Shown here: positions 1-63,059 of the stretch, piece by piece
Position numbering within the stretch: position 1 is the stretch's first letter
Layout: each line of letters opens with the position of its first letter
Source of the DNA: Podarcis cretensis
Taxonomy: Eukaryota
Reading direction: 5' to 3'
Assembly (NCBI GenBank): GCA_951804945.1
Contig: OX638150.1
Location: 24,862,001 to 24,926,000 of the forward strand
Length of the DNA stretch: 64,000 nt
Notes under the pieces: model-generated
The model's input: only the letters and a program-made list of their open reading frames with translations
The model's database searches: none
What the model was told of the DNA's origin: nothing
Position numbers and translations under genes: made by a program

Positions 1-1466
1 TCCCACAAGCCACTCCACCCAGGCCTTCCTTATTTTTCACTGCTGCTCTTCCTATGCCGTCTTCTTCTGGCTGACTCCATGACACCAAGCACCAACAAGT
101 TCAGCTGTCGCCAACTAACCAGCACCTGGCTAAATATGTACTTTTTCTGGCCCCTCTAGTCCAGCTCCAGCCAATGGTGCCAAACTGAAAATTCAGAAAT
201 TATCGCAGCTGTTAGTTAAGGCCCCAAGCGGTAGGTAAACTAACTTCCACAGGAGCAGACAGAAAACTTCCCATGTCAAATGCATCACAATGTAGTACAA
301 ATGTCAGAACACATTACCCAACATCCATTAAAACTTAGTTCAAATAAACATTACTTCTTCACACTTCATAGTAACATCAAACACTTTTGTAGTGTATCGT
401 CATCTCATACAGTATGTGAAATAGGAACTGTGGACACAATTAGCTGCATCAACCCATAGAACTTCATTTAAATAATATGCCATTTAAATTCCAACCATCT
501 CATGCTTCCTTCTTTCACCAGAAGCACTTTCTAGAAGATTATTTGCTTCCGATTCTAAACTTTCCTTTTTATCTCCATAAGCTTCAGAGAACTGAAGGGT
601 TGCATGAATGAAAGAAGCTCCTCTACTATTTAACATTTCCAGGCACAGACAAGATGCTCTGCACATATTCTTTTTGGATCAAAGCTGTATGAAGCTGGCA
701 GGAAAATTAACAGGTTGCACATTCCCCACAAGATTCATGAATTGTAACTACCTAATACAGTACCTTGCTTTACATAGATATTAGAAACCATAAGGAAAGG
801 AAGGGAGTGAAAGACAGCTAAGGCTGAAAAATGCCAAACCATAAAGAGATCTAGATTATTATATTTTTATTTTATCTGAAAAAAATATATTTGCATTTGC
901 AGAACATATATTTGTGAAAATTGTACTAAGTTACGTCCGTCAGTTGATCAAGACTTGTAACGGAGCATAATTTCTGTTTCTGGTGCTGTTGTTCATGGGT
1001 TTATATTGTTAGAGATTGAAGTAAAATGATGTATGTAAACTAAAGTGGCAATACTTTCTCTAAGATTGTTTCCAGACAAGCAGCTCCTAGCACTAATCTT
1101 TCTTTTGTAAACTGCAAGTACTACATTTTTAAAGTAATAAAAAAAGCAAAATGGAAGATTGGATGGAAGATTGGTTAGCACTACCATCATGAAGCCAGCA
1201 CGGTGTCACCCCTACATCTGTGCAAGTCTGCCGGAAGCATGCATGTTAAAACAAATGCAAATCTGCTAGAACCCACAATTTAACCATCAAACTATAGAGT
1301 GCATCAGTGGCTGGAACATCTTTAATTTCATAAGTAGAGATATAAGGTATGGCTTTCATTCAAATTCAGTTTCTCACGGGGGTGTGATAATATGATCTCC
1401 ACTTTATTCTCTTTACAAACTAATGCTAAATTGATTACATGCAAGTTTGACTTTATCATATAAATG

Positions 1467-1472
1467 TTTATT
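1467..1472 (-). terminator. Candidate AATAAA poly(A) signal of copy A
   Basis: tttatt on + strand; positionally conserved with 56290-56295 in the aligned paralog UTR. Confidence 0.5.
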
Positions 1473-2074
1473 CCTCTATTTTGTTATTCCAGTGGCCAAT
1501 GGAACAGATTCATTGCTTGCCATGGTTATCAAAACATTAGAACTGGGGTGTGCTGCTACAAATTGTAAAGACCTTGAAAACGGAACACAAAAAGTTAAGT
1601 CTGTCAAACATGTAGTACATCTTGTGTGTTGATATTAAAAATGGCAAAAGATAATGCAACGCTTTAATGTGCTGTATAAAGTGATTTAGTCATGTTGCCT
1701 TTACAATTTGCACTGGAAAAGTGAGAGAAACCCATTTAAATAAATGGACGTATGCATGCATGCAGTATACAGGGTTCTTTGCAACTTGCAATGGTAATGG
1801 TTTAAACCATCCGAAACAAAATGGAGCATTGGTAGTTTTATACCACATTACACATATATTGAAATGTATTTTGACATTATTGAATGTATTTCATAGTGGC
1901 TTAAAGTGATTGGCTGCAGGCAAAATACTTATTTTGAGCTCATGAAATGCTGACTATACCCATCTGACCAGATCTATTCTGGATAATGTGACTGTTGTTC
2001 AGAACATATAACCCAAAAGGGGGAGCTAGAACAATGCCATAAATGCCTTGTCACTAATTCTGAAGTGCAATTGC

Positions 2075-2986
2075 TTTTTTTTTTAATTAATTTTTATTGG
2101 GTTACATGAGTACACACAGCATCGGTTTTCAGTTCAGAGTCCTTTCTACAGATCAGTCATATTCGACATGAGACGCTAATGTTTTAGTCAATAAAAGGTT
2201 GGGCGAGAAGAGATGGGGGGAGAGAACTAAACATTCATTCTTTTACATAGTGTTTTGTGTCAGCGTCACATGGGTAGATTCTCTTTCTATTCATTCATTC
2301 GTCTTCACTGGCGGTGAGGGAGATTGGGAGGCAAGGCCTGGTTGATTGCCTTCAGTTGACTGCAGTGAGTTTTGTTTGCATGGGTGAGGGGCAGGGGTCG
2401 TTAGGTCAAGTTAGTCATATCGATTCATATGCAGTCGGTGGGTTCTTGCCTTGTTGGGCTGTGTATGTAATAAAGGGGAGGCACAATGGGGTGAAGGCAT
2501 CCTCTTTTGTTTGTCCCCATTCTAGTTTCAATTTGTTGGTTAGGTTTTCCCAGACAGTTCGGTCCCAGTGGCTTATGTTCACTCCTGAAGGTCACCTCCG
2601 GTGTCTAGTTATGATGATCCTGGCTGCTGAGCATAGGTGGGTTATGAGTTCTTTGTAGTGTGAATGTGCCTATTGTCTTGGAAAATATTCAGTAAGGCCA
2701 GTTCTTGGGTGGCTTCTAGTACCTGTTTTGTTATTTTGCCTATTTCTTGTAGGACTAATGTCCAAAAGGGTACAACCGCTCCAGCATTTTGGTGGGGTTC
2801 CTGGGTGTGTCAGCACCACCTTTTGGGTTGTTAGGTACCATCTAGAGATAGGTTTCAATGTGAGTTGCCTTCTTTTGGCTTATATTTAAAGGGAGGTTTA
2901 GACCACAGTTTAGTCCATTGGGCAGGGTTTATTTCACAACCCATATTGTGCTCCCATTGTTTTTGACTGAGATGAGGGGATTTCTG
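2075..2986 (-). mobile_element. 5'-truncated L1-clade LINE (ORF2 C-terminus, 3'UTR, poly-A) in copy A 3'UTR
   Basis: Frameshifted KQWEHNMGCEINPAQWTKLW / KPISRWYLT...KCWSGC / LCSAARIII; AATAAA (2093-2098) and A-tail; TSD gaagtgcaattgc(t)n starting at 2062 and 2987; TT/AAAA endonuclease site. Confidence 0.85.
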
Positions 2987-3720
2987 GAAGTGCAATTGCT
3001 TTTTTAAAAAAGAGTACTGTAGTACAATAAAGAGTTAGCAAGCACTTCGACAATGACCCTAGCAAGCAAAGGTTCATGCTCATTCAATTAGGTCAGCAGC
3101 AGCTAATGCTGCCTTTGCTGCAAACACATCATTGCTGGATATTTGTAAAGCGGCAACATGATCTTCTTCCCTAGGCACTACAGACTGGACGTGTATTCTT
3201 CAGCTGATGCTAGCACAGTGTTGCATCAGGTTCTTTAGTATTTGCACTACAGTTGGGAATCGCTGTGGTAAGTCCCAACTCAGTTAACCCTTCCTTAACC
3301 CACTGAAATAGGACAAATTGGTCTTACCTGAAGCTTAAATTTAGTGGGTTAGGAAGAGTTCGCTGGGGCCCAGCCATGGTCCTTCCCATAAAACTAATGA
3401 GTTTCTTGAAAAATAAATTGCCCCCAAACAATATATTAAGTACATTGCCCTCTTTCCACCATTACTACAGAACAAAACAAAAGGATAAAATCATAGTGGT
3501 TTTCATTATTACTTTTTTTAAAAAAGAAGCAAGTCTTCGAATAGTGGTAAGAGTATTCAAAAATAAAGGCATTTCATAATATTTCATAAGGCAAAGAAGG
3601 TTTGCTCAATTGCTCAGGAACAGGCTCTGTAATATATTTGTTCTCTAGAGCCACAGCAAACAAATATTTAGCAAAAACCCTGACAAGTGAAGCTCTTGAA
3701 TTTCTGCAATGTGAAACAAA

Positions 3721-3828
3721 TCAGAAAATAACTCTCTCCCCCTGGGATCTTTCCCAACTAATTGTTCCATTTAGGGTTCCAAAATTGCTCTCTTCCTCTT
3801 CTTGCTCCTTGACAAGTTCCATAAATAC
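3721..3828 (-). CDS. ABCA5: Copy A terminal exon 39 (coding part, TGA at 3723-3721)
   Basis: [35 protein letters not shown]. Confidence 0.93.
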   Translation of the reverse strand, partial: VFMELVKEQEEEESNFGTLNGTISWERSQGERVIF

Positions 3829-6800
3829 CTAAAATGAATAAGAAACATGAATTAATACATGGATTCTGCCCAGTCCTATAGGCAGAATAGTGCTCTAAGC
3901 TAGTATAGGTTTCTAAATCTCTACCAGTCAACAGTGCTATACTACAAATCATCTGTACATGTAAACATAGAGGTTTTTCTTCTGGGGGATCAATTCCCGA
4001 CGACACCCCCCACTATGTGACAAAACATCATTAGGTATGTAACTCATGTATGAATTATAAAATGACAATTTTATATAAGAAATGTAAATGGAGACACTGC
4101 ATTTCAAACTTATTTTCTAGGGCTGGCATGCTCTGTTCTTGAAAAACGGTTAAATTACCTGTTCCAGTGTTGCTTGAGAAAAGCTGTACTCTTCAATATT
4201 AAAAGCATGTCTTGCTGTTAGAAATGTTAAAAAGAAGTATTTACAATCATAGGCATCAAAAGAATACATACACACAATCAACTAAAATCAGTATGGCCAG
4301 AAGTGGCCATAACAGGGTGCAGGAACCCAGCTGTCCTCAATGGGAAAGCCACTGTGAAGTTGTAGTGCAGTGGATTTAAATGTTTAAGGACACTGCAGCC
4401 TGTCAAACATACCTTGTGGCTCTAAGGGAATGGCAAGTTTATTTCTCAGGAGACAATCCTGTGCCTCTTTAAAATGCTCTGACTTTACTATGCCTCACAA
4501 AAGCAAGGGAAGAAGGTGACACATGCACCAAGGCAAATGGCCTGGGAGATGATAAAAGCTTGTAGGTAATCTAACGTTTGGATAAAGGAATGTATTGCTT
4601 ACATAGTGTTTGGGGACAGTGTGGGAGGTTGGCAGGGTGAATTCAGATTACTATGAGATTTGGATGGATAACTTAGAACCCAGTGATGAAGATTCTACTT
4701 AGTAAATTGTTGCCTCACCTTCCTCCAGTTTAGAAAAAGATACTGCAAGCGAGTGGACATCTTCCTTTGGGATTTTGTAAGCCAAAACAGAGGCAATGCT
4801 GCAACACACAAAAAACAGACACAAGTACATACCACCACAACTAAGCAGAAATGAGAATCACAAAATTGCTTGGAGTAAAGTTGCAGGAGTTAAGCATTTT
4901 GTACAATGTAGCCAAACAGGTACAATAACTCTGAATCAAACTAGAGGTTTTATCTAATAGAGAGGCATTCAAGGTGCTTGCCTAGTTGCCAAAGCATTCA
5001 CTGATGAAACCTTCCATGTACCAAGTTCCATCTATTTTGAGAATGAAAATGTGTTGATTAACCATAGCAATACAGTGGTACCTCTAGTTACAAACTTAAT
5101 TCATTCCGGAGGTCCGTTCTTAACCTGAAACTGTTCTTAATGGGGCCTCTTGCTGCTGGCACACGATTTCCGTTCTCATCCTGGGGCAAAGTTCTCAACT
5201 CGAGGTAACTCTTCCAGATTAGCAGAGTTTGTAACTCAAGGTACCACTGTAATTCAGGGTTCTTTCACTTGAACACTATGAGGAGAGACTTAAATCAGCA
5301 CCAGTCTTAGATGTGCACCTCTCTGCTCCCATCACATCAAGAAAATAATAATGAGTGATTCAGCCAAGCTGAAGCGGGTGGGGGGTAATTAACTCCATGC
5401 TTGGACAGATCCTTGACACAGCAAATGCTGACAGGAATGGCAGCTTCCTGCCTTCTGCATCTATGGGTCGGTAAATGATAGCAAAATAGACAAGGGGAAT
5501 GCTGGTTGCTTTACTATGCCAGTTTCTTTGGTGGACCTTGGACCACATTTCCTCTGGTCTATAAGGTATGTTTCTCTAGTAAGCATTACTCAAAGCCCAA
5601 AGAGTACAAGAGCTCTCATAGAAAAATAATACACTTTGGCAAGTGTTTTCTTTTCTTATAATTGTAATATTTTCTCTCTGCTTTTATTTTTAAAATGATT
5701 GCTTGAAAAAAGAATAGTAAGCACTTTTTCTTTTTAATGCTCAGAAACGTCAACTATTGATTTCTACCTTTTCTGGCAACTTGCGTTTGGAAAGATGCGC
5801 AAAACCATCCTTTGAAGACGCTCCTTCTGCTGTAAATCCAGCACTTCTCTTAATTTCATTTCCAAGAAATATCCTCTGCCAAATTTACTCTTGAGATGTT
5901 GAACTGTACCAATGCACCTATCAGTTTTGGGGGAGAGAGACAGGCAAACAAAATAATAGATTTTGGCATTAAATTCGTTTTTAACAATAAAAATCAGAGC
6001 TTCTTCACTCAAGATGCCAAGGAAGTACCTTAATTTTCCAGACACCAAGATTGCGACTCGATCACACACAGCCTCTGCTTCTTCCATATAATGAGTTGTC
6101 AGAATAGCTGCTCTCTCCTTACTTTTTAAGGCTGCCCGAATTGCTTTCCTATGGTGAATAAGTTACAAATTGTTGCTCTTTCGGTGTGCAGTTACATATA
6201 AAGGGCATAAGATCATTTGTTGGATCTTCCGCAAGTGAGTGGGAAATGTACAGGCAGTGGTATACTGTGAGTAGCCACCAAATGCATTCTCTCCTCACAT
6301 TCCCTCTGACATTTAGGGATCATCCAGACTTCCTGTTACATTGCACTTTCCAGATATAGGTCTGCCTTTTAAAGGCCCATGTCTTAGCGTTTTGCTTTGT
6401 TTTTTGTCCTGGTGCTTTCCCTGGGAAAACCAATGTTTTACTGCTGAATCGGAGCAAATGGCAATTCACGGAAAACCCAGTTGCCCTTTGTTCTGATTCA
6501 GCGGTGAAATGCAGGCTTTCCTGGGGAAAGCGCCAGGACACGCTCAGAGCTTTAAACCCATGCCTTAGAAACATGGCACAAAAGGCAGTCTGGATGAGCA
6601 CTTAGTCGTGACATGCAGCTGGTGCCATGGAAGTTCTGTGAAAGAAAAAGGACAGCCAGTGGGAACAAAGCTACTGTGTGTCAACATCAGGCATAGGCAA
6701 ACTCGGCCCTCCAGATGTTTTGAGACTACAATTCCCATCATCCGTGACCACTGGTCCTGTTAGCTAGGGATAATGGGAGTTGTAGTCCCAAAACATCTGG

Positions 6801-9800
6801 AGGGCCGAGTTTGCCTATGCCTGGTCAACATGAAAGAGGAAACAGCAAAGAGGGTGGAAAGGATCAGCTAATAGCGTTCCCCAATGCCACACCCAATTTT
6901 GACCGTAAACTCTTCAGGGGAGAAGGTTTGTTTTAGCCCTGCTAACATCTGCCATATATATAAATGAATACACCTATAGCATTAATAGGAAGGCAGCCAA
7001 TAATATGGGGTAGGTTATCTAAGCATGTATCTTCAAGATATGTATATTGTAAAGATGCAAAAAGACTGAGCCTACTGTTCAGAAGCAGAAGAGAGATAAT
7101 GAGCAAAGCATGGTTATAAGCCACACATACATGTGATAAAGCCTCCATGATATTTGGGGTTACTCACCACATCTGCTGTATCCCTACAGGGTCCATACCA
7201 GTAGATGGCTCATCTAATAGAGTAACATTAGGGTTACCAAGCATACTAAGAGCAAAGCATAACTGAAAGAGAAGGGAAGGGAAGGGTGACCATTATACAA
7301 TGCACCATTGGCTGCATTTGAACACTAATGCCAAGCCAAAAATCCTGACTTAAATCTGAGATATGCACAAGTGATGTGCATCATCATGCAGCCCATTTCC
7401 TACTACTTTGCTCCTTCCTTCCTACCAGTGGCAGAACAAGCCAAGATTTTTAGCACAGCTTTCCATTGTGAGCAAACCTAGAAACTAGCTTCAAAAGAAG
7501 CCAGGTTATTAAGCAATGTTTTTTGGCTTAATGCCCCCTGGCTTGCTTTGGTGATTAACCATAGTTTCTGGGTTTGCACACAATAATAAGCAATGGTTTG
7601 TTTTGCTGCTCATATGATACAAGAATGTGTGGATTCACAGTGGTCATGCATATCCAGGCTTATTGATCCTGGATTCTTGGTTTAGCAATTCAGCTTAAAA
7701 ACAACAATCAAATACCTTTCGTTTGATTCCTACTCCAAGGTCCTTTGCTCTTTTCTGTAGATGTTCCTTGAGGTCAAGTGCATGGGAAATGCTGGAGAAA
7801 AACAAAAGTATACAGTGTTAAACATTCTAAGAAACCAGTATTAGAGAACTTTAGCGTATGCTCGTTAGTTCTTTTTCAAGTACATTACTTCATATGACAT
7901 TTTGTGTTTTAGCTAGTATTATTTGATCTCCAGTTAACTTTACACTATTTGTGGTTTTAACTGGATTGATCTTCCCTACAGAAATAATCAAGATGTATGC
8001 CACAGGTAGCTTAAGTGTTTTTTTAATGGTGTTTTAAGAGATGTGACCAGAAAAGTCTTGCAACCTGACAATTTCGTCTGTAACTTAGACTGCTGACTAC
8101 AAATTACCTTTCAAACTAGCACAGAAGATTTTGATACATAACAGAAAGCAGAATCTGAACTACAGCTTTCATCAGCCTAAAAATAAAATGATGCAAATTT
8201 ATGTCTTAGATATATCTGTGTATCTACAAGAATCTGTGTGGTGTGGTTTTTAAGTTGAAGCTAACAACCATTTTCGGGGAGACATTATACCAGAGTAAGA
8301 GAGAAGAAACTTCTCTGAATGTAAACGAAGTGTTTAAAATATATATTTACCATTTTATGAATTCTTTCATGTTACTTTCACTCATTCCTTTGATAGCACC
8401 ATAAATTTCAAAATGTTCCTGCAATGTAATATCAGGCCAAAGTGGATTTGTCTGTGGACAGTATCCCATAAATCTCATGGAGCTATCCTTGTTATTTTCG
8501 CCTAAAGAATAATCTCCCATCAGCACCTGTGAATATACCAGTCCTTATTCAATATTTTTACATATAGTTTGCAGTTAACATGCAGAAAAATTGATTGTAT
8601 GGAAAGTAATTTTTTTTAAAAAATGACAAGAAATGCTCAGGTTTGGTTTTACTACATGATCACTCTTTTATATACCAGGAGCCATCTGGGATATAGCCTT
8701 CCTATGGGTAGTCACAACATCCCAGTGCCTATTTCTGAATCTAAGCCATATATCATATGAACGGAAAACCCATTGTACCCCCTCTAAAAGTGTTAGCTTT
8801 AGAAGCAAAGCAAACATGAGTCTGTTCACAACTCTCAACCATGTATTTTAGTAGGTCTTGTGACACCCCCCCCCAGTTCATAGTTCTGAGATTATCTATG
8901 AAACCAAAAAGGAGTTACGCACTGAAAATTCATATGCATGAACATTTCCAATAATGGGTACCCCACTCTTGCATAATCTTCTTTGGGCATCTCGCTGAGG
9001 TTTAGGTACTTACATGCCAGCTGGAAAGAAATATCCAGAAAAGAGTATGGATCCTCAGTATGAAATAACATTTTTTACCCTCTGAAAAAATAGGACTACA
9101 GCCTGAGCTATGAAACCTGTTCTGGATGGAAGAGGGGGACACCAGCTTCACTTGAATACCTGGCCTGAGGTTGGTTCTACTTCTCCCACCAACATATTAA
9201 TCAGTGTGCTCTTCCCAGCTCCATTGGGGCCTAGCAGTCCCATAATTTCTCCTGGAAAAAGAAAAGGCAAACACGTAAAATGTGCAGTTCTGTTTAATGA
9301 GATGGTGCATTTTATTTTCCCGACTTATTTATTTTTACAACTAACCTTTTTTTACACAAAAAAAGACCTGATTGGTTGCCACCTTCTTGATTTTTCTTCC
9401 GAGAAGAAAATCTGTCCTTTCATCATAATCTTTATGTAAATTGCTGACCAAAATGGCAGGTTTCTAGTGAAACAAAAGGTAACAGCTTAATTAATAACAC
9501 ACATGGAAAACTAAACCAAGCTTTCTTGCTACGTGCACAAGTTGAAACAAGCCTGAGTAAAGCCTCAACCTCACATGCTCACCTGTGCAGCCAGGAGAAG
9601 GATTTCATGGGCATTTACTTTCAATTCCCATAAACTTAGCATGTCTTCTGCTAACCAGGGATTGTTAGTTAAACAAGGTGCATAACTCGTGATTTGGAAA
9701 TTGTGCTTTTTGAAACAGACTATCACTATAAGAGAGGTAAGGCACATCACCCCTTATACAGGTCTTACAATACGACCAGGTGCCAGTAGGTGCCAGTGTC

Positions 9801-12800
9801 AACAGGGTTGATACTAAAGAGCAAGATTTACCTCCTCACAGCTCTGGCTCGTTGTCATCTCCTTAACCCTCAACCTCTCAGCCACAACATCTTCATCTTC
9901 ATCCTCGTCAAACGGCACATCTGGCGATTTCCTGGCCTTCAGCTTCGCAGGAGTTCTGAAGTTAAGGAAATATATGTGAAATCTGCTCATTGGGACCTCT
10001 GAACAGATGGAACTAACAGAAATAATGCCATCAGGTAGACCTACATGAAACCCTGTCCAATGTGACCTTGTGACAGAATTGGCTAGAAAAACACCTAAAA
10101 TAGACTAGTGAGATATTTTGCTAGATTGGTTGGGTGAATGAGAAGGTGGCAGCAATCACGCTGCAATCGCTGATAATATCCCATTTATCCCTGATTCAGT
10201 TTCTTATGTGCAACAGTAAGAAGAATGCTCTTTCATGCAAGAATCATCACATATTCAATCAGCTAAAGAAATGGTTGGACGATGGGTGGGTGTTCAGAGA
10301 AGCTGTGTGAAGGTTTTGTTTTCCTTCTCATTCTAAAGCATATTGAAGTGTTTGACTTGGGAGAAAATTCAAATAAACTCTCTGGTGCTGATGGCTACAA
10401 TATATTTGTCTGATCCACTAACTAGGAAAGCATACACACTATTCTGTGATATTTTAGTTTGCCTAATAAAGTAGGATCAGAAAGGATGTCAAAGACACAA
10501 CTCTTAGATCGTGAACAGAAAAAGTTGTGATATTGCAAGGATCCCAGGGCAAACTCTTGGACTCCAATTGCTTCACTAACGTCCCTAAAAGTATTGCCTA
10601 TCTAAGTAATAACTCCAGCCCTCCCTTAAGCCCTAAACATCAGCAAGTGGTCACTTCTCCATGGACCAAGAGACTTTTAATGTGTATACATTGTTGCAGT
10701 TCACTACTGACTAACTCTGCCTTGGTGTAGTAATTTCAGTACTGTAAATAGAGGCATACCAACCTGAAAAATGGGTCATTTCTCATTGATTTGCCGCCAT
10801 ATTTCACCTCAAGATAGCGTAGAAGGAAGAGCCAAATGACACATTGCAAGTAGGGCTAAAAGAGAAGAAAGGAATAAGCACATTAAATAAAATGGATTTT
10901 CTCCTTTGCAAAGGACCCTAGATGCATTTCCCCTCTTTGCACATTGCTCCACTCTCTTCCCACAAAACAATGTAAGATAGAGCCAGTGTGGTGTAGTGGT
11001 TAGAGTGCTGGACTAGGACCTGGGAGTAAGGTAAAGGTAAAAGGACCCCTGACCATTAGGTCCAGTTGTGGCCAACTCTGGGTTGCAGCGCTCATCTCGC
11101 TTTATTGGCCGAGGGAGCCGGCGTACAGCTACCGGATCATGTGGCCAGCATGACCAAGCTGCTTCTGGCGAACCAGAGCAGCGCACAGAAACGCTGTTTA
11201 CCTTCCCGCCACCTATTAATCTATTTGCACTTTGACGTGCTTTGGAACTGCTAGGTTGGCAGGAGCAGGGACAGAGCAATGGGAGCTCACCCCGTCGCGG
11301 GGGTTCGAACCGCCGACCTTCTGATTGGCAAGTCCTAGGCTCTGTGGTTTAACCCACAGCACCACCCACATCCCAGCAGGACCTGGGAGACCAGGTTTCA
11401 AATCCCCACTTGGCGTGAATCTCACTGGGTGACCTTAGGCCAGTCATTTCTTCTCAGCTTAACCTGCCTCACAGGGTTGTTGAGAGGATAAAAGGGGGGC
11501 AGTAAGTGTGTACGCCACCTTGAACTCTTTGAAGAAAAAGTAGAATATAAATACAATGATGAATAAAATATTATTATTTACTTTATGTATCACACTTTAC
11601 ATGAGGCACCACAAAGCAATATATACAATACAATTAGACTGATGGAGCATCTTAAGACCTTCATTACATTTCCCTTTCTGCACCAATCTGCCGGTTATCT
11701 CCACAACTATTTACTGTATTTTTCGCTCTATAAGTCACACTTTTTCCCGCCTAAAATGGGGAAATGTGTGTGCGTCTTATGGAGCGAATGCAGACTGCGC
11801 AGCTATCGCTGAAGCCAGAAGAGCAAGAGGGATTGCTGCGCAGCGATCCCTCTTGCTGTTCTGGCTTCAGGGATAGCCGCGCAAAGCCTCTTCAACAACA
11901 TTTGATTCAGAATCTTTTTTTTATTTCTTGTTTTCCTCCTCTAAAAACTAGGTGCATCTTATGGTTGCGTGCGTCTTATAGAGCGAAAAATATGGTATTT
12001 ATTTAAGCAATTAGTAGGACACCTGAACCCAGCTTATGTTACACATCCTTCAGTATCATTTATATGCCACAGTAGTGGGAGGGTCAGGAACAGTACATCA
12101 AAAATGCAAGATCTTCAGCTAGTGTTAGAAGCAAGACTAGCATACACCAGCATACACTTGCTATGTTTTAGCAAAATAACTCTAAAACAACCCTTTAAGC
12201 TCAGTTTAATGACCATGATTACTGCCATGTCTTCCCCATAGATCAGTGATGGAAAACCTTTGGCCCATGGATCAAACTTGACCGGCCAGATGATCAAATA
12301 TGACCCAAGAGGCAGCTTTTTCCAAACCATGCTCACCTGTCCCACACCTTTTTGTAAACCGCTTCGAGGTTTTTTACATGCAAGTAGTATATACATTTTA
12401 TGAAATAAAATAAAAACAATAACACCTTATCATTACATGTAAAAGTGTATCCAGACAACCCATCTCTTAAATTCTTAAGGGAAAATATGGTGCCTACCGC
12501 TATTGTTGAAACCAATAGCCTTTCTGTATTTCTTTCCATATTTCGACCAAGCTTCTCTGCTACCTAACAATATAGAAAATGTTTATTTCAATATTTCCCC
12601 CCTCATATTTCTACAGGTCATTCTGAGTTCATTTATATAATATTACCATTTAGAAAATGCTTTTACAATGCTTTTCAAAACAATTAATTTATTTGAATTA
12701 TTTCTTCCGCAAACTGATTTTTGCAGGAAGCTCATCAAAAAACATACATTTTTACAACAAACAAACCTGCTTTTCCTTGTTTCAAAGAGAGCATCAAAAT

Positions 12801-18800: not shown

Positions 18801-20718
18801 TGTAATTTCCACCTGAGTCCTAGTGTGGCAATGAATTTGAACCAGAATATCCTACTAATCAAACCCAATAAATAAGTTCTTTAGAATGCAGCATGACAAC
18901 CAGCCCAAGTTATGACAGCATAGAATCAATTAGCTGAACAATACGATTTGGTAACTATGTTGAACAGAGAAGTTATAAATATTGCTGCTATTTCCTTATT
19001 CTAATTGAACACTTTTACGTACAACCATATCTGCCCTGAATTGATTCACTACAATGTATGAAATCAGTTAAAATAAGTTATGATGCCAAATAGGTGGCAA
19101 GGGAATAACTATGGTGACTCCTGATTTTCCCTCTGATCAATTTGGTCTGAGGAATCACTGTGTTGAACCAATGTACAGGACATTTCACATTGCTTTTTTA
19201 AAAAGTATGTTCTAATACAAAGTTACCCTGTGGTTTTCTGCATTGTCCATGGAAAAATATGATGGCAATCCAGTTATTGTGACTCCTACTGTCAAAGCTT
19301 GAACAACCAGCACCATTATGAAACCTCTGTCAGTAATTTTCTGCAAAATAACAGATTGCAATATTAGAATACAAAGGGAAAAAACCCACTGTGAAATATA
19401 ATTTTAAGGGTGTGTTTTTTTTTGGGGGGGTGTCTAACCGTGGCTTGATAAATCAGTCTGTTTTTGCTATATTTAGTTTGCAGTTATGTAACTTGGCATA
19501 TTTTGCATTTTTAATTCTTTTGAAAGACAGTACAATAAAAGTTTGAAAACTAAAACTAATAAATAAATCTGTTTTGCAGCCTGACTAGGGCTGCAAAATG
19601 GAATACCTGGGAGACCACAACACATGGCATTTAAGATGTGTTTGGTTTTGGAGATAACGTCATGCAATCCAATATACACAAAGGCCACGTTGTCATGAAC
19701 TGGAATGCAACTTCATTTTACAAGAACTTTTTTTGGACTTTGTATTTACTCACTTGGAAGAACGAACTACTCCAGACATGGATGTTTTCTGTTACATTTA
19801 AATTGTGCAGATACAGATTGCTAATGATATTCATCATAACTGGTAAAGAATGTTTCATGGTGCAGTTAAAAGCAGCTGTAAAGATGTAGCTCTGAAAACA
19901 ACAAGAAAAAGAGCATAATCAGCTACAAATCTCTAGTGCCACCGTTCCTTCCCTCTTGCACTTTATGTGCTGATGGAACAGCACCAGGGCAGTGGGAGAA
20001 AGGAAATGACATGTGAGCTATTAAAGAAAAATCTGTGAGCTTTGATCTTACCACTGCTGCTGACACCAAGGCTGACAGTGCGGAAAAAGGAAAAAGACCT
20101 ACCGCCCTGTTTCTAAGGCGAGTTTCCCTCTTCAAATTTCAAAACCTCCCCTATCCCCTATTTTTTGGGGAGAAAAATTCATTTTGTATCCCAACTCCCT
20201 GCCAGCAAACACAACGAATGCTCACATAGAACCAATATATTTAACCTGCATTTCTTCTCACCTTGCCTGCATGAGATACATTTAATGCTCCATTGTGGGG
20301 AGCAACTGATACGTAATCACTGCCATTGAATATTTCTGTGTGTACATTCTGGCTTATAAGAGAGCTGATGATGTCATCAATGTCTGAACCTAGGTTGAGA
20401 CAATAAAGAAAGTTGAAAGGTTAGTCTCACAGGCACAAAGATTCCTTACATGCAAAGAGTTTCCCCATTCCCTGCTATGCCAAAGATACATATTATTATT
20501 GAACATTTAGAGTTAGCCCTGATATTGCAGCAAACAAGAAGGCTCATGTTCTCCAGAAGTCCCGTATCAAAATATCCTTAGAGTTTTAGGGTGAAATCCA
20601 GTTAAGTCATACTCAGACCCGACACATTGAAATAAATGAAAGTTAATTATTTCAGTGGGTCTGCTTTGTGCATGACTGAGATCAATACCCTTGAAGCACT
20701 GACAAGATGTGTATATAT

Positions 20719-20749
<31 letters not shown>

Positions 20750-50999: not shown

Positions 51000-51560
51000 A
51001 CGTATCCTGCCTTCCCTCGCTTGCTTTCCCCTCATGGACGCTTTAGCTGAGAACCCTTTGCTTTGCAAACAGGGTTGGGCTAGATGACCCCTCGGGGTGC
51101 CCCCTTCCAACTCGACGCTTGCAGCATCCCTCCCTTTCGCCTCACCGCAGCGCCGCTCCTCCTCACGGCGGTTTCCTTCCCGTGCCACCGCTCCCGGCCT
51201 GCGCGCGCAGCTGCTGCTGCCTCCGGGTGGGAAGAAGGCCTTTGCGTCAGGCCGGAGCCTCCCGGCCGAGCAGCGGGCGGCGGCGGCGGCGTCTCTCCGG
51301 TCCCCGAGCGGCGGGAGGGAAGGAGGGGAACGCGGGAGCGACAGCTACTTCCCGCCGGCGCCCTTCTTCACTCACCTGCGCCTTTGGTGAGGGGACCAGG
51401 GAGCCGAACTCGCCTGTCCTTGGGGCGGCGGGGGGGGAGCCTTAGCTGCACTAAGTCGTCGGCAGAGCCGCCAAATCAGAGGCAAAGACCGGCCAGCATC
51501 TTTCCTCGCTTTGCCGTCTTCGTCTCTCTGTGTGTACTGCGACCAATAAGCAAATTAACC
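51000..51560. promoter_or_regulatory. CpG island / promoter of copy A, with GC-rich boxes and a CCAAT box (51543-51547)
   Basis: Abrupt GC- and CpG-rich segment 3.4 kb upstream of the ATG exon; GGGGCGG at about 51422; CCAAT. Confidence 0.75.
51376..51500 (-). other. ABCA5: Putative non-coding exon 1 of copy A (5' end approximate)
   Basis: Strong donor CGCAG|gtgagt at 51376/51375 inside the CpG island; the start codon lies in the next exon; TSS not determined. Confidence 0.65.
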
Positions 51561-51831
51561 ATGGGCCGTAGCCAGGGGCTATTCAATTAACTGAGGTTCT
51601 CAATCAACTGAGGTTCTGCCCTCCCCGCTCCAATGTGTGTGCAATGTGTGTGCAAATTAACCAAGGGGTACTTAATTAACTTGACTTTCTGCCTTCACCC
51701 AGCAGAAGCATGACCCGCCCGTTAATGTCATTTTCTTGTTGTTAATGTTATTTTTGTTATTTTTACCCGTGATTTCCCAGAAACCTCGGCTGTCCCCCCC
51801 CCCCCCAACAAAAATCCCGGCTACACCCATG
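51560..51831. mobile_element. hAT-type MITE abutting the promoter
   Basis: TIR catggg.cgtagcc / ggctacacccatg; exact 8-bp TSD aaattaac. Confidence 0.8.
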
Positions 51832-54513: not shown

Positions 54514-56289
54514 ATATGTATGAGAGCAGATTTATGGAAGCTGTAAGCATTCGAGTGCAGCTTGTTATACCCAAGTCCTGTGTTAGTCCTCATCTTCAGT
54601 TTCCTCCTACTCTGCTTCCAGCTGCCGGCACAAAAGTGCTTCAGCGCTGTTAGCATTATAATTCAAATAAATTATTCAAATCTTTAAATTGTAACAGCAT
54701 GCCCACCGGAATATCCACCGTGGGTACTTAGTCACCCATTAGCATCCATCAAGATTAAGGAATTACATCCAAAATGTGCACACAGTCCTCTTCTTGCACT
54801 CAACATTTTTGCACTACTCATTGCTGAATCAGTGCCATCTAAATCACCTCTACACTCTCTTTCATCTTTGGGAACCCCCCACCCTCCCCAAGACCAACTC
54901 TCCCAAACCAACTCCCACTTAAAAGCTTTTCCTTGTCAGATAATTCATTTGCAGCTCACTGTTCATGTGTTCAGTAAGAAGTACTGGAAATCGATTTTGT
55001 TTCCTTTGTACTATTTTTCTTCCCCCAATCTGTTCTATCCTTATAGGTGTCTCCATAGGAATTGGCAAAGGAGTGTCCACTCGCCCCCTGCTGCCTTGCC
55101 AGGGGCACAGGTCCCCAGTAAAGGAGAAAGCCTGGTGTGGTAGAAGAAATGTAGTTGATTTACGTGAGACACTAAGGTGTCGTTAGTTAAAGCTCATTTT
55201 GCAACTTGCAAATAGCCCTTTAAGGAAGATATCTTTGCTTTAGAATAGGCAACGCCTGCCCTTCAACTTATTTCTCTCCCCTCAAATCTGACTTTCCCCT
55301 TTCACATCCCTAACATTAGAACAGCTGTTCATACCTCTGCAGGCTAAGCAATTTGCACTCTGGTCTTCACCTCCTTGCTACCAATTTCAAGTTAAAGATA
55401 CTGGTAATCGTAGAGAACCAAAGCTACATATCTAGTGCAGTGGAAGATTAAACCAATTCTTAAAACCCCCAAAGTCTCATTTAAGAGAGTCTTGCTCAGA
55501 AACATGTTTTTGCTTACATACCTCTTTTGTAAATTTGGGAGTGACAAAGCTTTCCCAGGCTGCATACAGACTATACTTTTGAAGCATGTTTAAAGCACCC
55601 CCACAATTATAGTACTTGACATCAAAATGCCCGCCTGCATTTTCCCCCATTCAATCCAGATTTACCGCTTCTGGGGGAAATCTGCCTGGTTAAAATACCA
55701 ACCAGTCAGCAACAACCTGTTTGTGGTATCTCAACCATCTTTTTAAAGTACTGAGCCCCCTAAAACAATAGCAGCACAACTTTGACTTGTGTAAAAACCC
55801 TTCTCCCAATTTTCTTCAAACAGAAAGGCATAACAAATCCTGCAAATGAAAATTGTGCTTGAGAAACAGCCTTCCAACATCAAAAATAACATGATTTTAT
55901 AGCAACAAGATTTTGGAGGATCATTCATCATATTTACACATAGTTTTCCACATCTTAGTTTAGCGTTTCTTCTGTGCATTTAGCAAAGTCAGAAACGAAG
56001 TAGCAATAGCAAGAGTCTCCAGAACCTAATGGAAAAATTGACTTTTTGTAAGAGTACATGCTGAAGCAACAGTAAGTCTGCTAGTCCGGCATTTAACTTT
56101 CATACTATAGTGCTTAGTCAAAGGTTAACATTCTTTAATTAAGTACAGATATTTTAGGCCTTTGCATGGAATTCAGCTTACACTAGGGGTGTGCTAATGT
56201 GATCTCCTCTTTATCATTTTTGAAGAATTCTCTTTATATCCCAATCATAAATTGATTACATTCAAGTATGGCTATACGAAACATAGATC

Positions 56290-56295
56290 TTTATT
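56290..56295 (-). terminator. Candidate AATAAA poly(A) signal of copy B
   Basis: tttatt on + strand, aligned with 1467-1472 of copy A. Confidence 0.5.
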
Positions 56296-57617
56296 ACTTC
56301 CCAGTGATACTGGAACAGCTTCGTTATGTTTTTCCATAGTTATCATCATCAACATCACAATAAATACAAGGTTGTGGTGTGCGTGGCTACAATTTCACTG
56401 TCAAGGAAAGACCTTGAAAACTGAACACAGAAAAGTTTGCCTGCAAAAAGTGGTAGATCTTAATGTGTTGAAACTCTCAACAGAAATAACCACAATGATG
56501 CAACAGTTCAACATGCTATAGGAATGTACAAATAGATTTAGCTATTTGGTTTTCACAATCTGCATTTGTAAACGTGAAAGAAACCTATTTCTTTAAACTA
56601 TTTAAATGTACTTGTGCATGCAGTATAGGCTTCTGTGCAACTTGCAACAGTGACACAATTTAGACTTACCATTCAAAACAAACAGTTTATATACCTGGCA
56701 GCCTTATACTACACTTTATGTACATGTATTTGGATTTTGTTGACTAATACGTGGTTGTTCAGAGTGGTTTATAATGTAATCCTACACAGCCTTAAAGTGC
56801 AATATATTTCCGGGACTTGACCCAATAAATCTCTCTTCTAAACTAGTGAAATGCTGATTATGCCCAACTGACCTGCAGTGCTATAAGATCATGTGGCTGG
56901 TATTTAGCCCATACAACACAAAAGGAAAGGGGCTTGGAGATGGGGGCTAGTGCATAAATGCACCAGTCATTAATTCTGATGCAAAACTTGCTTTAAAAAA
57001 GCATTAAAATTTGCAAACTGACAATGTAGATTCTAACTCAAATAGTGCATAGCTTCATTTAAATGGGTTTGGATGTGGCAGTACTGGGGCCCTGTACTGA
57101 CAGAGAGGGTCCAAGCTGTCAGAAAGGTGTCTCCTTGGCCATGGAGAGGGCAGAAGACATGATTGCTGGTAATTGACCTAGTGAAAAGCACACAGATGGG
57201 GTGCTTTTGGTGAAGAATGGGCGTGGTTAAGGACAGACACAGTTCCACATAGACCAGACCCTATAGCTGCTGGCCACACCCTCACAACCTGGCAAATCCC
57301 ACCGAAAGGTCTGGTGGAAGGGAAACCCAGAAAGACACAATCGAATGTGTCAAAACCAGACTTCCCAGTTTGCCCTCCCTCCCTCATCCATGTGGCAGAA
57401 CCAGACAGCCAACCACTGCAGTACATTGGATACAAACCTGTGACGTGTCAAACCCTACTCAGAATGTCAGAACAGGTAAAAGTGCATGAGGCTATGCTTC
57501 TGGCTGTGGACTTGGAACTTGAGGGGGTGGGGGGTTCTGGTGAAAGGGCATTTTGCACAGAACATAAACAGAAGGCACTTTGTTCAAAGCCTGCCTCTAC
57601 AGCTCATGGGGCAAAGC

Positions 57618-57753
57618 CAGTGGCGTAGCGTGGGTTGTCAGCACCCGGGGCAAGGCAAGTAATTTGCGCCCCCTAACCCGTGGATTTGCCCTAACCCCAG
57701 ATGTTGCGCCCGGTGTGGCCGGCCCCCCCTGCACCCCCCACGCTACGCCACTG
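57618..57753. mobile_element. hAT-type MITE in copy B 3'UTR region
   Basis: TIR cagtggcgtagcgtggg / cccacgctacgccactg; exact 8-bp TSD ggcaaagc. Confidence 0.88.
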
Positions 57754-58157
57754 GGCAAAGCTAACACTACTCTTGGGCTTCCATCCCAACCAGGCTTTTT
57801 AGCAGCAGCTCTACAGATAACAGGACCCAGCAGGAAATGCCACTAAAAAATGATAACCGGGTTGGAGAGGACTTCACACAGCCACCCTGCCCAGCAAATC
57901 TAGTCCAGAAAAAGGGAGCATGTCTTTGTAGCAAACGACAGAGACCCCTGCAACAAAGGAGCCAGCTCACCCATGCACGACCACAGGCCCCATTTTATGT
58001 TTTTATTGCTGTAAACAGCTTTGATATATATTTTTGTGATACAAATGTAAATAAAATAAACTTCTGCTACTCCGCTCAGGTTGCAGATGTAAGAGCCAAT
58101 ATGCACACATGTCATTTTAGGGGGGTCCCCAACAAGGTGCAGAGAGATATTTTGTTC

Positions 58158-58410
58158 GACTGCCTAGCTGGTTCCATCGTAGCAATAAAGGGCTTAAAAA
58201 AAAATGATCTGCCTGTTGTGTGTTTCGGTGGTGTGAGTGCTGCGTTTAGGGACCTGAAGTGGAAATGACAAGGTGTTGATTATTTGACTGTGTAGCTGGT
58301 TCCATCGTAACAATAAAGGGCTTAAAAAAATGATCTGCCTGTTGTCGTGTGTTTCAGTGGTGTGAGTGCTGCGTTTAGGGACCTGAAGTGGAAATGACAA
58401 GGTGTTGATT
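58158..58410. repeat. About 128-bp tandem duplication
   Basis: tagctggttccatcgta...gaaatgacaaggtgttgatt occurs twice with few changes. Confidence 0.9.
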
Positions 58411-59540
58411 TCCACCCAGCTGCAGCACTGCTGGTGCTAAGTGTATTTACAGTATCGCAGTGAGTGTGAGTGTCATGTGTTGTCTGGTCATGTGTGTACT
58501 GGGTGGATCAGCCTTTCGTGCTGGGAACTGTGTCTGAATTTGCTGCTGTGGGTGGGGTTATCATGGATGTGTCCTTGTGCCTTCTGATGCTCTTGTTCCC
58601 CTTTTCTCAGCCATCATACAATGGGGACTGTATGAAATGGGAGTCTGTGATGCCAGAACTGCCAATGTTCCTGTCCCCGGGCAGACTTGCTTACTTTGGG
58701 TTGCACAGTACGATCAACTTGAGCACTTAACATACAAAGAAAATTCCAATATGAATTTCCCCAGAAGTTTGAAGAAGATTAAATAAATGCTAAGTATTCT
58801 ATTTTGTGGTTTATTACAAGTTGAGGTGTACCTGAGCTTTGAGCCACCTGAATAATACCTGCTAGTCTAGGGAACTGCTTTCTCTTATGATTTAGCTTAC
58901 ATAAAAATGTGTGCAAACTGACAGGAGTTACCAGGTTGAACCGGAACCATGTCAGTATGGTCTTTAGCAAAAATCTCCTCTGAAAAATATCCATATAAAC
59001 CGATTACTATACTGTAGACTGCTCAGTGGTGTCGCAAAATGTTCTCCCTACAACTTCTTCAGAGGTGGTTCTTGAAATCAAGCTTCATGAACTGCATCAC
59101 ATTTAAATGCCTTGTAATCATAAATTTTAAAAATCTGTAGTTGTCTTCTTCTGCTAAAGAGGATACCACATACTTGTACAGACTGATGCAATTTGGTATA
59201 TGAAATTCTAGAGTAGAAAGCATATATTGCACCCAAAAAATTAAATTCTAATCTGCCCTCTTTCTGCCATGGCTACAAAACATTTCACATAAAAAGAGCA
59301 AGTCATAGATAAAAGACATTTATAATGTTGATGTATGTAAGGCAAAGAAGGTGAATAGGCTCCATTTTGCATTTTTAGGTGAAATCAGTGTTATTTATAC
59401 TTATAATTGTTTGGGAATATGTTTCCGATTCACTGTGCTCATACACATTCCAAAAGAAGGAAACAAAGACAGAGGGAAAAACAGTCCTTTAAAAAAAAGT
59501 TGAAGAATGCAACAGGTAAAATTCTACAACGCGGACCAGA

Positions 59541-59645
59541 TCAGAAAACCACTCTCTCCTGCGCTCGTTCCCACCAAAGTGTGCTGTTTAGTGTTCCAAA
59601 ACCACTGTCTTCCTCCTCTTGCTCTTTTGCAAGTTCCACAAATAC
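59541..59645 (-). CDS. ABCA5: Copy B terminal exon (coding part, TGA at 59543-59541)
   Basis: [34 protein letters not shown]. Confidence 0.93.
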   Translation of the reverse strand, partial: VFVELAKEQEEEDSGFGTLNSTLWWERAQERVVF

Positions 59646-62600
59646 CTAAAACAAGTAAGAGCTTCATGAATATGTTAAATTACAACCACAATGCATGTGA
59701 GAAATTTGCAGGCAAAATGGTAGCCCAAGTTAATTGAGAGTTTGAAATCTCCACAAGCAGTATACCAAGACTAAAACTTTGGTTGCAAACCACAAGTCCG
59801 TGTTTAGATGTATCACCAAGCCAAAGAATGACTTAGCTTTAGTTAGTAGAGAAGAAGCAGGAGTGTTGCGGCAACAATATTTGCTCCCAGAACCCAAACA
59901 TTTGCACATTTGTGCTAAGCCATGGTTTGCTCCAAAAATTATGTGTCATGTTAATTTACAAAACTTTTGTGAACTTGGAAAGCTATAATAAAATCATGGC
60001 CAGATATGAGAGGTGTGAATGTTTTCTGTGACCATGTTTTCTGTAAATATAGCTAGCTTACACAAGCAAACAATTGATTTTACCAAATACAAATTTGAAA
60101 ACCATGAAACTATGTTCTGTGGCGCATTGCATTATATTTTTGAAAAAGTCTGTTTAAATTACCTGTTCAAGTGTTGCTTGAGAGAAGCTGTACTCTTCAA
60201 CATCAAACGCATGTTTTGCTGTTAAAAGTGATAGAAGGAATTCCTTACTCCTCAACAGTAATCAATTATACATCAAAAATTACTTTACATCAACATGCAT
60301 TTTAAAATGAAACCTGTCTCTCAACATCAGTAAAAATAGAAAACACTGATCAATCTGAAGGTCATAAGCATTAAGATGTGCACATCCTAAAGCTCTTAGC
60401 AGTTTCTCGCTCCCGCATATACAGACACATCGGGTATATGTACCCTGCTGTTCCCTAGGATTCCAGTGATCAGGAAAGCCACTGTGTGTATTGCAGTACA
60501 GTGTACAGTGGTACCTTGGTTCTTGAACAGCTTAGTTGTCGAACAAATTGGCTCTCAAACACTGCAAACCCGGAAGTAAGTGTTCCGGTTTTCAAACGGT
60601 TTCGGGAGTCTAACAGACTCCCGGAATGGATTAAGTTTGAGAATCAAGGTACCTCTTCTGCACATTAGGAGCTTCCAGGAGACTTTAATGTTTAAGGATG
60701 CAAGCACTAGTCAAGCATAGTGTATGGCTGTGAGGAGACAACAAGTTAATGCATCAAGAGGAAATCCTGTACCTCTTTAAATGCTCTAAAAGTTAACAGA
60801 CTTCAATGTGTCTCAGGAAGGCAAATCAGGAAGGCAACATACCCACTGGCCAGGGGTTTGGATAAGGGAATATATTATTTACAGAGAGAATTGTGATTCT
60901 GAGAGATGTGATGATGGGGGTGGCGATTGACAAGATGAATTCAGGTTAAGATGAATTCAGGTTAACAGGTGGTTTGGATAGAAAATTGAGAATCAGATGG
61001 AGGTTCTACTTAGTAAATTATTACTTCACCTTCCTCCAGTTTAGAAAACGATAATGCAAGTGAGTGGACATCTTCCTTTGGGATTTTGTAAGCCAAAATA
61101 GATTCAAAACTGCAACAAAGATAAAACAGGCATCAGCGCATTCAGCAACAACTAAGCAGAAATGAAAACCACCCGTGGCTTAAGTAATGTTACTGGAATT
61201 AAGCGTACAATGTCGTAATATGTCTGAACAGGCTGTCATTTTGGATCAGACTGCAGCTTTCATCTGTTCTATCAACTTATTTGTAATACAGCCAGTTGAG
61301 GGTCCTACAAAGAAAAGTTCCAATCAAAGTGATTTGCAAAGAGAAAACAAAACAAAACAAGCAGATCTTAGCTGCCTGTCAGGGACCAAAGCAAACGTTT
61401 CTGCCAGCCCCATCAACCACAGTCTACTTTGGGTCTATAACAAACACATAACTGTATTTACAGTAACAAGCAATATTTGCAATAATGAGTGTCCAAATGT
61501 AAGTAGGAGGACAGGGAAGAAAATACGGGCCTAAACCTGCATCAGCGCCCAATTTATGACTCAAGACCAGAGGAAAGAAGTTCCCACTCTACCTGCTGTA
61601 GAGCTGATCAGCTGGAAGTTAGGCATTTGTTGTGACCAACCTGTGGACTAAGTTCTGTGTCACTGTTGACAGGTGTGTTGCCAGCTGACCAATGAATCCT
61701 CACTTTTCATCCCCCCTCCTCATGTTGTGCACTTTGGGGTGTTGGGGGAAATCAAGCTTCTTTTTGTTTAGTTTAATACCCAGAACTCTTATATGATTTG
61801 GTTTTTTACCTTTCCTGGTAACTTCCATTTGGAAAGATGCGCAGAATCTCCCTCTGAAGATATTCCTTCTTCTCTGTAAGCGGCACATGTCTCAGTTTCA
61901 TTTCTAAGAAATATCCTCTGCCAAATTTACTCTTGAGATGTTGAACTGTACCAATGCATCTTTGGGCGGGGCAGGCAGGCAGACAAAGGAGAACGTAATG
62001 TCAAAACCTTTCATGATATTTTAATGCAAAAGCCCAAGATGCTTTTATTCAAGATATCCCAAAGATGCAGAGGAGGTACCTTAATTTTCCAGACACCAGG
62101 ATTGCGACACGATCACAAACAGCCTCTGCTTCTTCCATATAGTGAGTTGTCAGAATGGCTGCTCTCTCTTTACTTTTAAAAGCTGCACGAATTGCTTTCC
62201 TGTCAGATGTAATAAATAGTGGAAAAGTGGAGTGGCTAACCTGCAAATGCTTCACTTTTTTAGTATTTCTCTATGGAGTAGCATATAATCGACATAAAGT
62301 CATCTGCTGGACTTTCCATGAGCTGGAGACGCAATGAAATACGAATCTCTCACACATCTCAATTGTATCTCCATATCCAAGTATTTTTGTGCCCATTCTC
62401 CAGGGATGACAGGTAGGTCCCGCGCACTGGCCATAGGTTACAATTTACACAATACTCTGATAAATCCTTTCATTGGAGTATGTGGAAAAAATGGCACAAA
62501 ACTCCCTTTTCTGGTACTGCGGAGTTGAAAGTTCTTGATAATCAGCAGGAAGGTTCTTAAGAGATTGGAGTTTACCGTGGTTAGCACAATATCTCTATTT

Positions 62601-62727
62601 CTCAACTTTCTGATGATTCTGAGGTGGCAGAGGTAGCTGAGGTTCCCTAAGATACCTGCCACCTACTTTGTCCATTTTCCTTTGTCCAAAATTACCCTGC
62701 GCATTCGGGGGGGTGGGGGAGGCAGCA

Positions 62728-62763
<36 letters not shown>

Positions 62764-63059
62764 GAATCAGTGTTATTTTGTGTTGCAACTATATTATGTT
62801 CCTGCTGTCAATGTTTGTTCACCGTGCTGATTTTTCAGATGATTATTCCAGGTTTTGCTAGCTGCATTGAAAGTGATGAAGTAAGGGGTGAGATGTAATT
62901 CTAAATAAAAAGCTGTGATGCTCCATTCTAAAACACATTCTCCATGTTGTTTGGTGTTACTCACCACATATGTTGCTTTGCTTTGGGGTCCATACCAGTA
63001 GACGGCTCATCTAGTAGAGTAATACGAGGGTTACCAAGCATACTTAAGGCAAAACATAG
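59541..63059 (-). CDS. ABCA5: ABCA5 copy B, 3' portion (exons 34-39; remainder lies beyond the window)
   Basis: Six in-phase exons ending [34 protein letters not shown]; internal exon sizes match copy A. Confidence 0.92.
60163..60218 (-). CDS. ABCA5: Copy B exon 38
   Basis: [19 protein letters not shown]; 56 nt. Confidence 0.93.
60506..60655. mobile_element. pogo/Tigger-like MITE in copy B intron 37
   Basis: ta-cagtggtaccttggttct...agaatcaaggtacc. Confidence 0.7.
61030..61109 (-). CDS. ABCA5: Copy B exon 37
   Basis: [26 protein letters not shown]; 80 nt. Confidence 0.93.
61810..61959 (-). CDS. ABCA5: Copy B exon 36
   Basis: [49 protein letters not shown]; 150 nt. Confidence 0.92.
62080..62199 (-). 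CDS. ABCA5: Copy B exon 35
   Basis: [39 protein letters not shown]; 120 nt. Confidence 0.94.
62730..62763. repeat. (AAT)n microsatellite
   Basis: Direct read. Confidence 0.9.
62965..63059 (-). CDS. ABCA5: Copy B exon 34
   Basis: [32 protein letters not shown]; 95 nt. Confidence 0.94.

Follow-up and report, generated by a model that had tools for sequence, protein, structure and literature searches.

This study concerns a pair of ABCA5-type genes in a 64,000-nucleotide stretch of the Podarcis cretensis genome (GenBank assembly GCA_951804945.1, contig OX638150.1, positions 24,862,001 to 24,926,000 of the forward strand; hereafter the window). The closest described systems are vertebrate ABCA5 itself, the ABCA6/8/9/10 genes clustered beside it, and ABCA3. 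Human ABCA5 is reported to localize to endolysosomes and to act in cholesterol export (PMC4022463), or in the export of cholesterol (or sphingomyelin) (PMC10784510). Genes related to ABCA5 expanded beside it in mammals, chicken, and Xenopus, with an ABCA5-like ancestor (PMC4458048).

Both lizard genes, called copy A and copy B here, share with vertebrate ABCA5 the 38 coding exons and the full-transporter arrangement of two transmembrane domains (TMDs) and two nucleotide-binding domains (NBDs) in the order TMD-NBD-TMD-NBD, with the same set of Pfam domains as the orthologues. Identity to the ABCA5 of turtle, bird, crocodilian, and mammal is 70-77% for B and 65-70% for A, and the adjacency to MAP2K6 is held by B. 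The difference is that a single ABCA5 clade was found in the mammals, birds, turtles, crocodilians, and geckos sampled, whereas this lizard has two copies, of which A carries clade-fixed changes in its interface helices. The pair resembles the ABCA6/8/9/10 cluster in being a tandem expansion at one locus, where the ABCA8-like neighbour also has the 38-exon plan; copy A, however, shows just 41-43% identity to the ABCA8/9/10-like proteins of squamates and is of much later date, having originated from ABCA5.

ABCA3 exports surfactant phospholipid and, as a distant paralogue, serves as a structural map only. Copy A matches the ABCA1/3/4/7 structures, of which ABCA3 (7w01) is closest (E=1.8e-165), and the TMD1 helices and cavity-floor positions of ABCA3 can be aligned with A. 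The two also share the ABCA3-like architecture with compact extracellular domains (ECDs) described in PMC13161189, a source in which the mechanism of lipid choice by ABCA transporters is still called open. In ABCA3, lipids enter laterally into two cavities beside the contact between transmembrane helices (TMs) 5 and 11, the cavity floors are lined by Arg280, Lys370, and Asn372, and ATP binding closes TMs 1/2/5 onto 7/8b/11 and extrudes the lipids (PMC8993109).

Our preferred interpretation, to which we give a probability of roughly 55% on the strength of sequence comparison, is that a tandem duplication, likely a single one after the divergence of geckos, produced a copy A that kept both ATP-binding sites, changed its predicted lipid-pocket helices, and likely exports a lipid or lipid mixture other than that of B. 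The duplication itself is genuine, of old date, and widely shared, with both copies intact; A is its derived product, and B is the conserved gene beside MAP2K6.

Two intact ABCA5 genes in tandem

Spliced alignment to related proteins placed copy A on the minus strand, with 38 coding exons running from 47997 to 3724 and ending in a TGA stop (3721..47997 including the stop), and gave a product of 1643 aa with no internal stop codons. Its introns comprise 36 of the GT-AG type and one of the GC-AG type, and the protein is 99.2-99.5% identical to Podarcis proteins named 'ABCA5-like'. Copy B, also on the minus strand, was completed from the flanking DNA, of which 200 kb was examined per side with window-scale coordinates kept outside 1-64000. 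It runs from 99871 to 59544 and comprises 38 exons encoding 1657 aa with no stops. Exons 33-38 and the stop codon of B fall inside the window (59541..63059), where the six exons from 63059 to 59544 measure 95/120/150/80/56/102 nucleotides (nt), and exons 1-32 lie past the window end. All four runs have contigs in which the five introns from exon 33 to exon 38 are spliced out. These models bear out the initial annotation, which had proposed two intact ABCA5-type genes arranged head-to-tail, with copy A as a full open gene of 1643 aa. It had also put the end of the second gene about 5 kb upstream of the A promoter. The contigs of the B 3' untranslated region (UTR; 55997..59540, minus strand, poly(A) signals at 56295 and 56139) end at 55997-56387, which leaves a gap of about 4.5-5 kb to the CpG island of A at 51.0-51.6 kb, in agreement with that estimate.

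Exon sizes are equal between A and B in 34 of 38 exons. The earlier match between the two copies in the run of 95/120/150/80/56 nt was confirmed, but the corresponding exons of the neighbouring ABCA8-like gene measure 95/120/141/80/56 nt, so a match in exon size is weak evidence of ABCA5 type. Exon-size matching was accordingly dropped as a test of ABCA type. The nucleotide differences between A and B over exons 33-37 are 19/95, 9/120, 25/150, 8/80, and 6/56; the count of 9 in 120 first reported for an exon numbered 35, our coding exon 34, is thus exact, and this exon ranks among the most conserved ones. The two proteins share 78.4% identity overall, with a synonymous divergence (dS) of 0.47 and a nonsynonymous divergence (dN) of 0.12, and the introns can be aligned only close to exons or at repeats. 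A genome search with one exon returned at least four matches: the two copies, the neighbouring ABCA8-like gene, and a distant ABCA locus.

Distribution and age of the duplication

The distribution of the two copies was taken from protein searches and cluster look-ups, with proteins sorted by tree or by 22 diagnostic columns. Among the matches listed, both copies occur in at least 22 of the 30 non-gecko squamate genera sampled, and A-type proteins are present in skinks, cordylids, lacertoids, anguids, iguanians, and snakes. All six gecko genera sampled have a single B-like protein each among annotated proteins. The matches listed gave B only for Varanus, Salvator, Candoia, Naja, Pituophis, Lerista, and Micrurus, and A only for Protobothrops; short Micrurus fragments in an A-type cluster were left unclassified. 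In the monitors and tegus (Varanus and Salvator), copy A may be lost or unannotated. The two copies report equal scaffold lengths in Python (0.66 Mb), Notechis (5.2 Mb), and Crotalus tigris (5.9 Mb), which is consistent with conserved linkage of A and B.

Trees were rooted with squamate ABCA8/9/10-like proteins as the only outgroup, and tuatara, dibamids, amphibians, fish, and mammalian ABCA6/8/9/10 lay outside the sample. With 68 proteins, FastTree recovered the A-type sequences as one clade (support 1.0) within squamate ABCA5 and placed geckos outside (0.79). With 34 proteins, IQ-TREE gave the A clade a Shimodaira-Hasegawa-like approximate likelihood ratio (SH-aLRT) value of 100 and the node joining the non-gecko sequences a value of 61. 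Approximately unbiased (AU) tests on 31 proteins kept two of eight topologies (p=0.057 and 0.968), both with the duplication after Gekkota, and rejected separate origins in scincoids and episquamates (2.6e-6) as well as three origins (2.6e-106). From these comparisons, a single tandem duplication is likely, on the squamate lineage that remained once geckos had branched off. The divergences of geckos and of skinks are dated to about 170-200 million years ago.

The claim that this lineage duplicated ABCA5 therefore needs dividing. ABCA5 itself was indeed doubled with both copies kept coding, but the event is not recent or specific to lacertids (AU p=1.6e-9), being common to most of the squamates sampled. 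Its independence from the mammalian expansion stands. A is nested in squamate ABCA5, and a grouping with the ABCA6/8/9/10 clade, which had been named as contrary evidence, was not seen with the squamate ABCA8/9/10-like outgroup (A as sister to ABCA8-like proteins is rejected at AU p=7e-49 in the 34-protein run).

Divergence of copy A

Copy A has evolved at about three times the rate of B, and Tajima tests found A to be the faster copy in 14 of 14 comparisons (e.g., 221 vs 68 unique changes in this genome with a gecko outgroup). A column was scored as a fixed change if 31 proteins, comprising B and the outgroups, conserved it at 90% or more and if 85% or more of the 10 episquamate A proteins departed from it. 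By this measure, 52 of 1004 conserved columns changed in episquamate A, and the converse scoring for B found 3 of 923. The changes in A fall on 21 of 90 columns in TM1/2/5/7/8/11, which we call the interface helices, vs 6 of 107 in the other six TMs (p=3.5e-4); the ECDs account for 7 of 125 columns and the NBDs for 1 of 348. When two scincoid A proteins were added, the counts became 18/90 for interface helices, 5/107 for other helices, and 0/348 for NBDs. Control clades gave interface and other helices, respectively, 7/95 vs 7/120 in mammals, 0/81 vs 1/106 in birds, 2/88 vs 1/107 in turtles, and 7/99 vs 9/117 on the squamate stem. With five control clades pooled, 24 of 166 changes lie in interface helices, vs 21 of 52 for A (p=1.4e-4). 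Hydropathy of A shows 13 peaks, corresponding to 12 TMs and one re-entrant hairpin, in keeping with a single chain of two TMD-NBD halves in which an extracellular domain follows TM1 and another TM7. The changed sites tend toward one face of the helix (combined p=0.019 over five helices).

The exons that encode several of the changed helices are all on the minus strand. Exons 1-2 (46962..47997) encode TM1 with the A-specific changes F42T/S, F45G, W46L, and L49I, and exon 7 (34124..34312) encodes the end of TM4 and TM5 with P323S, K329N/T/S/A, V334A, E335Q, L337F, and F344A. In the second half of the protein, exon 22 (19227..19340) encodes TM8 with Y1027V/I, F1028V, L1032T, V1037I/M, and P1042S, and exons 24-25 (14174..14774) encode TM10-TM11 with V1148T, E1158D, and F1162I/T. 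Position 329 is Lys in B and the outgroups and Asn, Thr, Ser, or Ala in 12 of 12 A proteins, in all of which E335 has also become Gln. Position 329 aligns with Asn372 of ABCA3, and a further change, A241T, lies beside the equivalent of ABCA3 Arg280. Aromatic residues in TM1, 5, 8, and 11 of A are replaced by smaller or polar ones, and many of the residues that A acquired do not vary among the 10 episquamate A proteins. The clade-fixed columns would thus fit a burst of change followed by renewed conservation of A, a pattern that suggests neofunctionalization.

The ATPase domains of A retain Walker A, the Q-loop, the signature, Walker B with its catalytic Glu, the D-loop, and the H-loop His in both NBDs. 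The signature of NBD2 is degenerate (LGVGI/LGAGI) in A, as it is in every ABCA5 sampled. Exon 33 of A (7168..7262, minus strand) encodes an intact NBD2 Walker B and D-loop, and the helix that follows reads DPVGIQQ (DPKAKQH in B). As a separate observation, CQQ precedes the NBD1 Q-loop (exon 12, 27833-28008) in all squamate ABCA5 sampled, including geckos, where other amniotes and the ABCA8-like gene have CPQ.

Because the predicted pocket helices are changed while the ATP motor is kept, copy A likely moves a different lipid. In the mechanism we propose, B would retain the ancestral task of endolysosomal cholesterol export, as in human ABCA5, and A would run on the usual ABCA cycle of lateral access and extrusion, in which ATP would close the two NBDs and the cavity between TM1/2/5 and TM7/8/11 would collapse. 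The lining of this cavity in A would have lost the charges of K329 and E335, and bulky residues (F42, F45, W46, F344, Y1027, F1028, and F1162) would have given way to smaller or polar ones, which would change the lipid that gets loaded. A more specific version is tentative and, in our judgement, rather unlikely: that A is a squamate-specific exporter, its pocket rebuilt early in squamate history, that might move a non-cholesterol lipid, for example of the shed epidermal barrier or of skin-gland secretions. Human ABCA5 acts in keratinocyte endolysosomes. If this version were true, comparing A with B would amount to a swap experiment done by nature, one that identifies the residues behind substrate choice in ABCA5.

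Weighing of alternative explanations

Several observations weigh against a changed lipid in A after a single post-gecko duplication. A-type proteins are absent among the matches listed for 7 of the 30 non-gecko genera, where some absences may be artefacts. The Shimodaira-Hasegawa (SH) test fails to reject a duplication before the gecko split (p 0.68, 0.65, and 0.30), and scincoid B falls outside the remaining B sequences in the best tree, by a branch of 0.005. This position may be due to gene conversion, as the skink Tiliqua has 20 private residues common to its A and B (background 0-10), a sign of putative lineage-specific conversion between the copies. The single gecko gene is also enriched for changes in interface helices (8/91 vs 1/107 in other helices, p=0.013), so such changes can happen without duplication. 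For A itself, 17 of 32 settings of cut-off, boundary, and helix set bring the enrichment to p<0.05, none of the 8 with the strictest cut-off does so, and TM1 is the only helix significant singly in the helix-face test. The helix boundaries were set by us after the list of sites was known; the check on them consisted of hydropathy peaks, with which they agree, and a partial alignment to ABCA3. The copy of the PDB searched contained no ABCA5 structure.

The main rival to a change of lipid is a division of labour with an unchanged substrate, in which the copies are split between tissues or organelles and the helices of A changed through relaxed constraint or a different membrane. We consider this possible, though on the unlikely side. 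Separate CpG islands for A and B in our CpG scan would suit it, as would the interface-helix changes of geckos without a duplicate, the weakening of the enrichment at strict cut-offs, and the C-terminal tail of A, where S1629G, L1631I, and W1632S could alter sorting. It sits poorly, however, with divergence that lies nearly all on the side of A (52 vs 3 clade-fixed changes), with NBDs that were spared (1/348), and with the invariance of many new residues in the 10 episquamate A proteins, which renewed constraint fits better than drift. Copy A could otherwise be a slowed or uncoupled transporter that binds ATP and lipid and serves mainly as a regulator or low-rate pump. In keeping with this idea, all 10 episquamate A proteins carry K1469I together with changes at 1467 behind the D-loop of NBD2 (exons 33-34, 6029-7262), toxicoferan A proteins have HYMAE in place of HYMEE in the H-loop, and position 1469 lies beside the stretch aligned with ABCA4 2105 (ABCA4 2106 is a disease-linked Arg). 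Yet A has kept the catalytic Glu of Walker B, Walker A in both NBDs, and the signature of NBD1; no part of the protein is more conserved than the NBDs, and scincoid A retains DPKAKQH, all of which makes a slowed transporter very improbable.

As to timing, a duplication older than geckos, or than squamates, with A later lost in geckos is distinctly unlikely in our estimate. The SH result, the value of 61 at the non-gecko node, and the reliance on annotated proteins for the absence of A in geckos leave some room for it, but the AU test gave p=0.014 and 0.0008 for such topologies with 31 proteins and 0.010 in the 34-protein run, six gecko genera each have one B-like protein, and an origin before the turtle/archosaur split is rejected (p=2.5e-37). 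A recent or lacertid-specific pair, several separate origins, or an uncollapsed haplotype has practically no probability. A few low-difference exons (exon 15 with 1/91 and exon 34 with 9/120) are all that would suggest it, against 78% protein identity, dS of 0.47, introns without alignment away from exons and repeats, the presence of both copies in at least 22 genera, and the AU rejections of lacertid-only, two-origin, and three-origin topologies given above. A recent, lacertid-only, repeated, or haplotype origin is thus refuted, and the initial annotation was right to discount an assembly artefact.

Database names and significance

RefSeq and UniRef already hold both copies as 'ABCA5' or 'ABCA5-like', under automatic names that leave the paralogy unmarked. 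The 'ABCA5-like' entries of Podarcis, Zootoca, Lacerta, Anolis, snakes, and others are orthologues of copy A (98-99.5% identity in lacertids), but the naming is inconsistent: A goes by plain 'ABCA5' in Zootoca, Pogona, and Anolis carolinensis, and several snakes have B entered as 'ABCA5-like'. We found no description of a squamate ABCA5 duplication in the literature searched, which left most subscription journals outside its scope. Database names do not separate A from B, and squamate studies that report 'ABCA5' may not specify the copy; in high-altitude Eremias, for example, 'ABCA5' was swept and down-regulated, and the available extract does not state which copy is meant (PMC9942394). A tandem duplication in the ABCA5 cluster is a familiar event, and the one-sided remodelling of interface helices, which the initial annotation had overlooked, is the more interesting finding. 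Having been kept for so long with its motor unchanged and few interface residues altered, the duplicate lends itself to specific chimeras and point mutants.

Transcript features and local gene conversion

The 3' UTR of copy A occupies 1300..3720 (minus strand) with poly(A) signals AATAAA at 1472 and 1408 and ATTAAA at 1326, and the distal 3' UTRs of A (1242-1791) and B (56057-56647) are 65% identical. At the other end of the gene, a likely non-coding 5' exon lies at 49970..50271 (minus strand), covered by contig pieces from runs X1 (49970-50242) and X16 (50053-50271) and followed by a GT donor. The CpG island at 51001..51600, found by CpG scan and reached by an X1 contig up to 51054, is the likely promoter and first exon of A (minus strand). 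Exon 3 is covered by pieces from run X16, and one depth value of run X1, 13.7, recurs at exon 4, exon 3, 50066-50172, and 51054. This shared depth makes it likely that the exon at 49970..50271 belongs with the coding exons of A and suggests a single spliced transcript starting at the CpG island. Among the splice joints listed, which leave out a further 58, none connects B to A as a read-through, a result that counts neither for nor against such transcripts.

Exons 14-15 of A and the GC-AG intron 14 between them (25255..25591, minus strand) stand out from the rest of the gene. The GC-AG intron is present in both A (donor at 25453) and B, and the ABCA8-like gene has GT there. Between the two copies, exon 15 shows a single difference over 91 nt (binomial p=0.0006, or 0.024 after 38 tests). 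Because of this near-identity and because intron 14 can still be aligned, the segments 25222-25627 and 83945-84383 are a candidate tract of local gene conversion. Gene conversion in lacertids at the protein level was unsupported, with 5 shared private residues against a cross-species background of 0-10.

Neighbourhood of the pair

The order along the locus is an ABCA8-like gene (plus strand), A (minus), B (minus), a CpG island at 108.7-110.5 kb, and MAP2K6-like exons (plus) at about 208.8-221.7 kb. Copy B is therefore head-to-head with the MAP2K6-like gene, and A lies one gene further in. Human ABCA5 adjoins MAP2K6 at the head of its cluster, and the synteny that had been suggested as a check was found in this genome, with the MAP2K6-like gene beside B and the ABCA8-like gene beyond A. 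The ABCA8-like gene, just left of the window, has 38 exons from -63528 to -491 and an open frame of 1619 aa, and it meets the 3' UTR of A tail-to-tail. In the human cluster, all five genes share one orientation, and the difference implies an inversion in one lineage. Upstream of the ABCA8-like gene, a single copy of its exon 23 (75% nt identity) lies at -70752 to -70554; no further exons were found around it, and it is probably the remnant of a lost cluster member. Between A and B, an open frame of 206 codons on the plus strand (53782-54399) resembles the C-terminal end of a long interspersed nuclear element (LINE) reverse transcriptase, and contigs of all four runs cover parts of 53844-54515.

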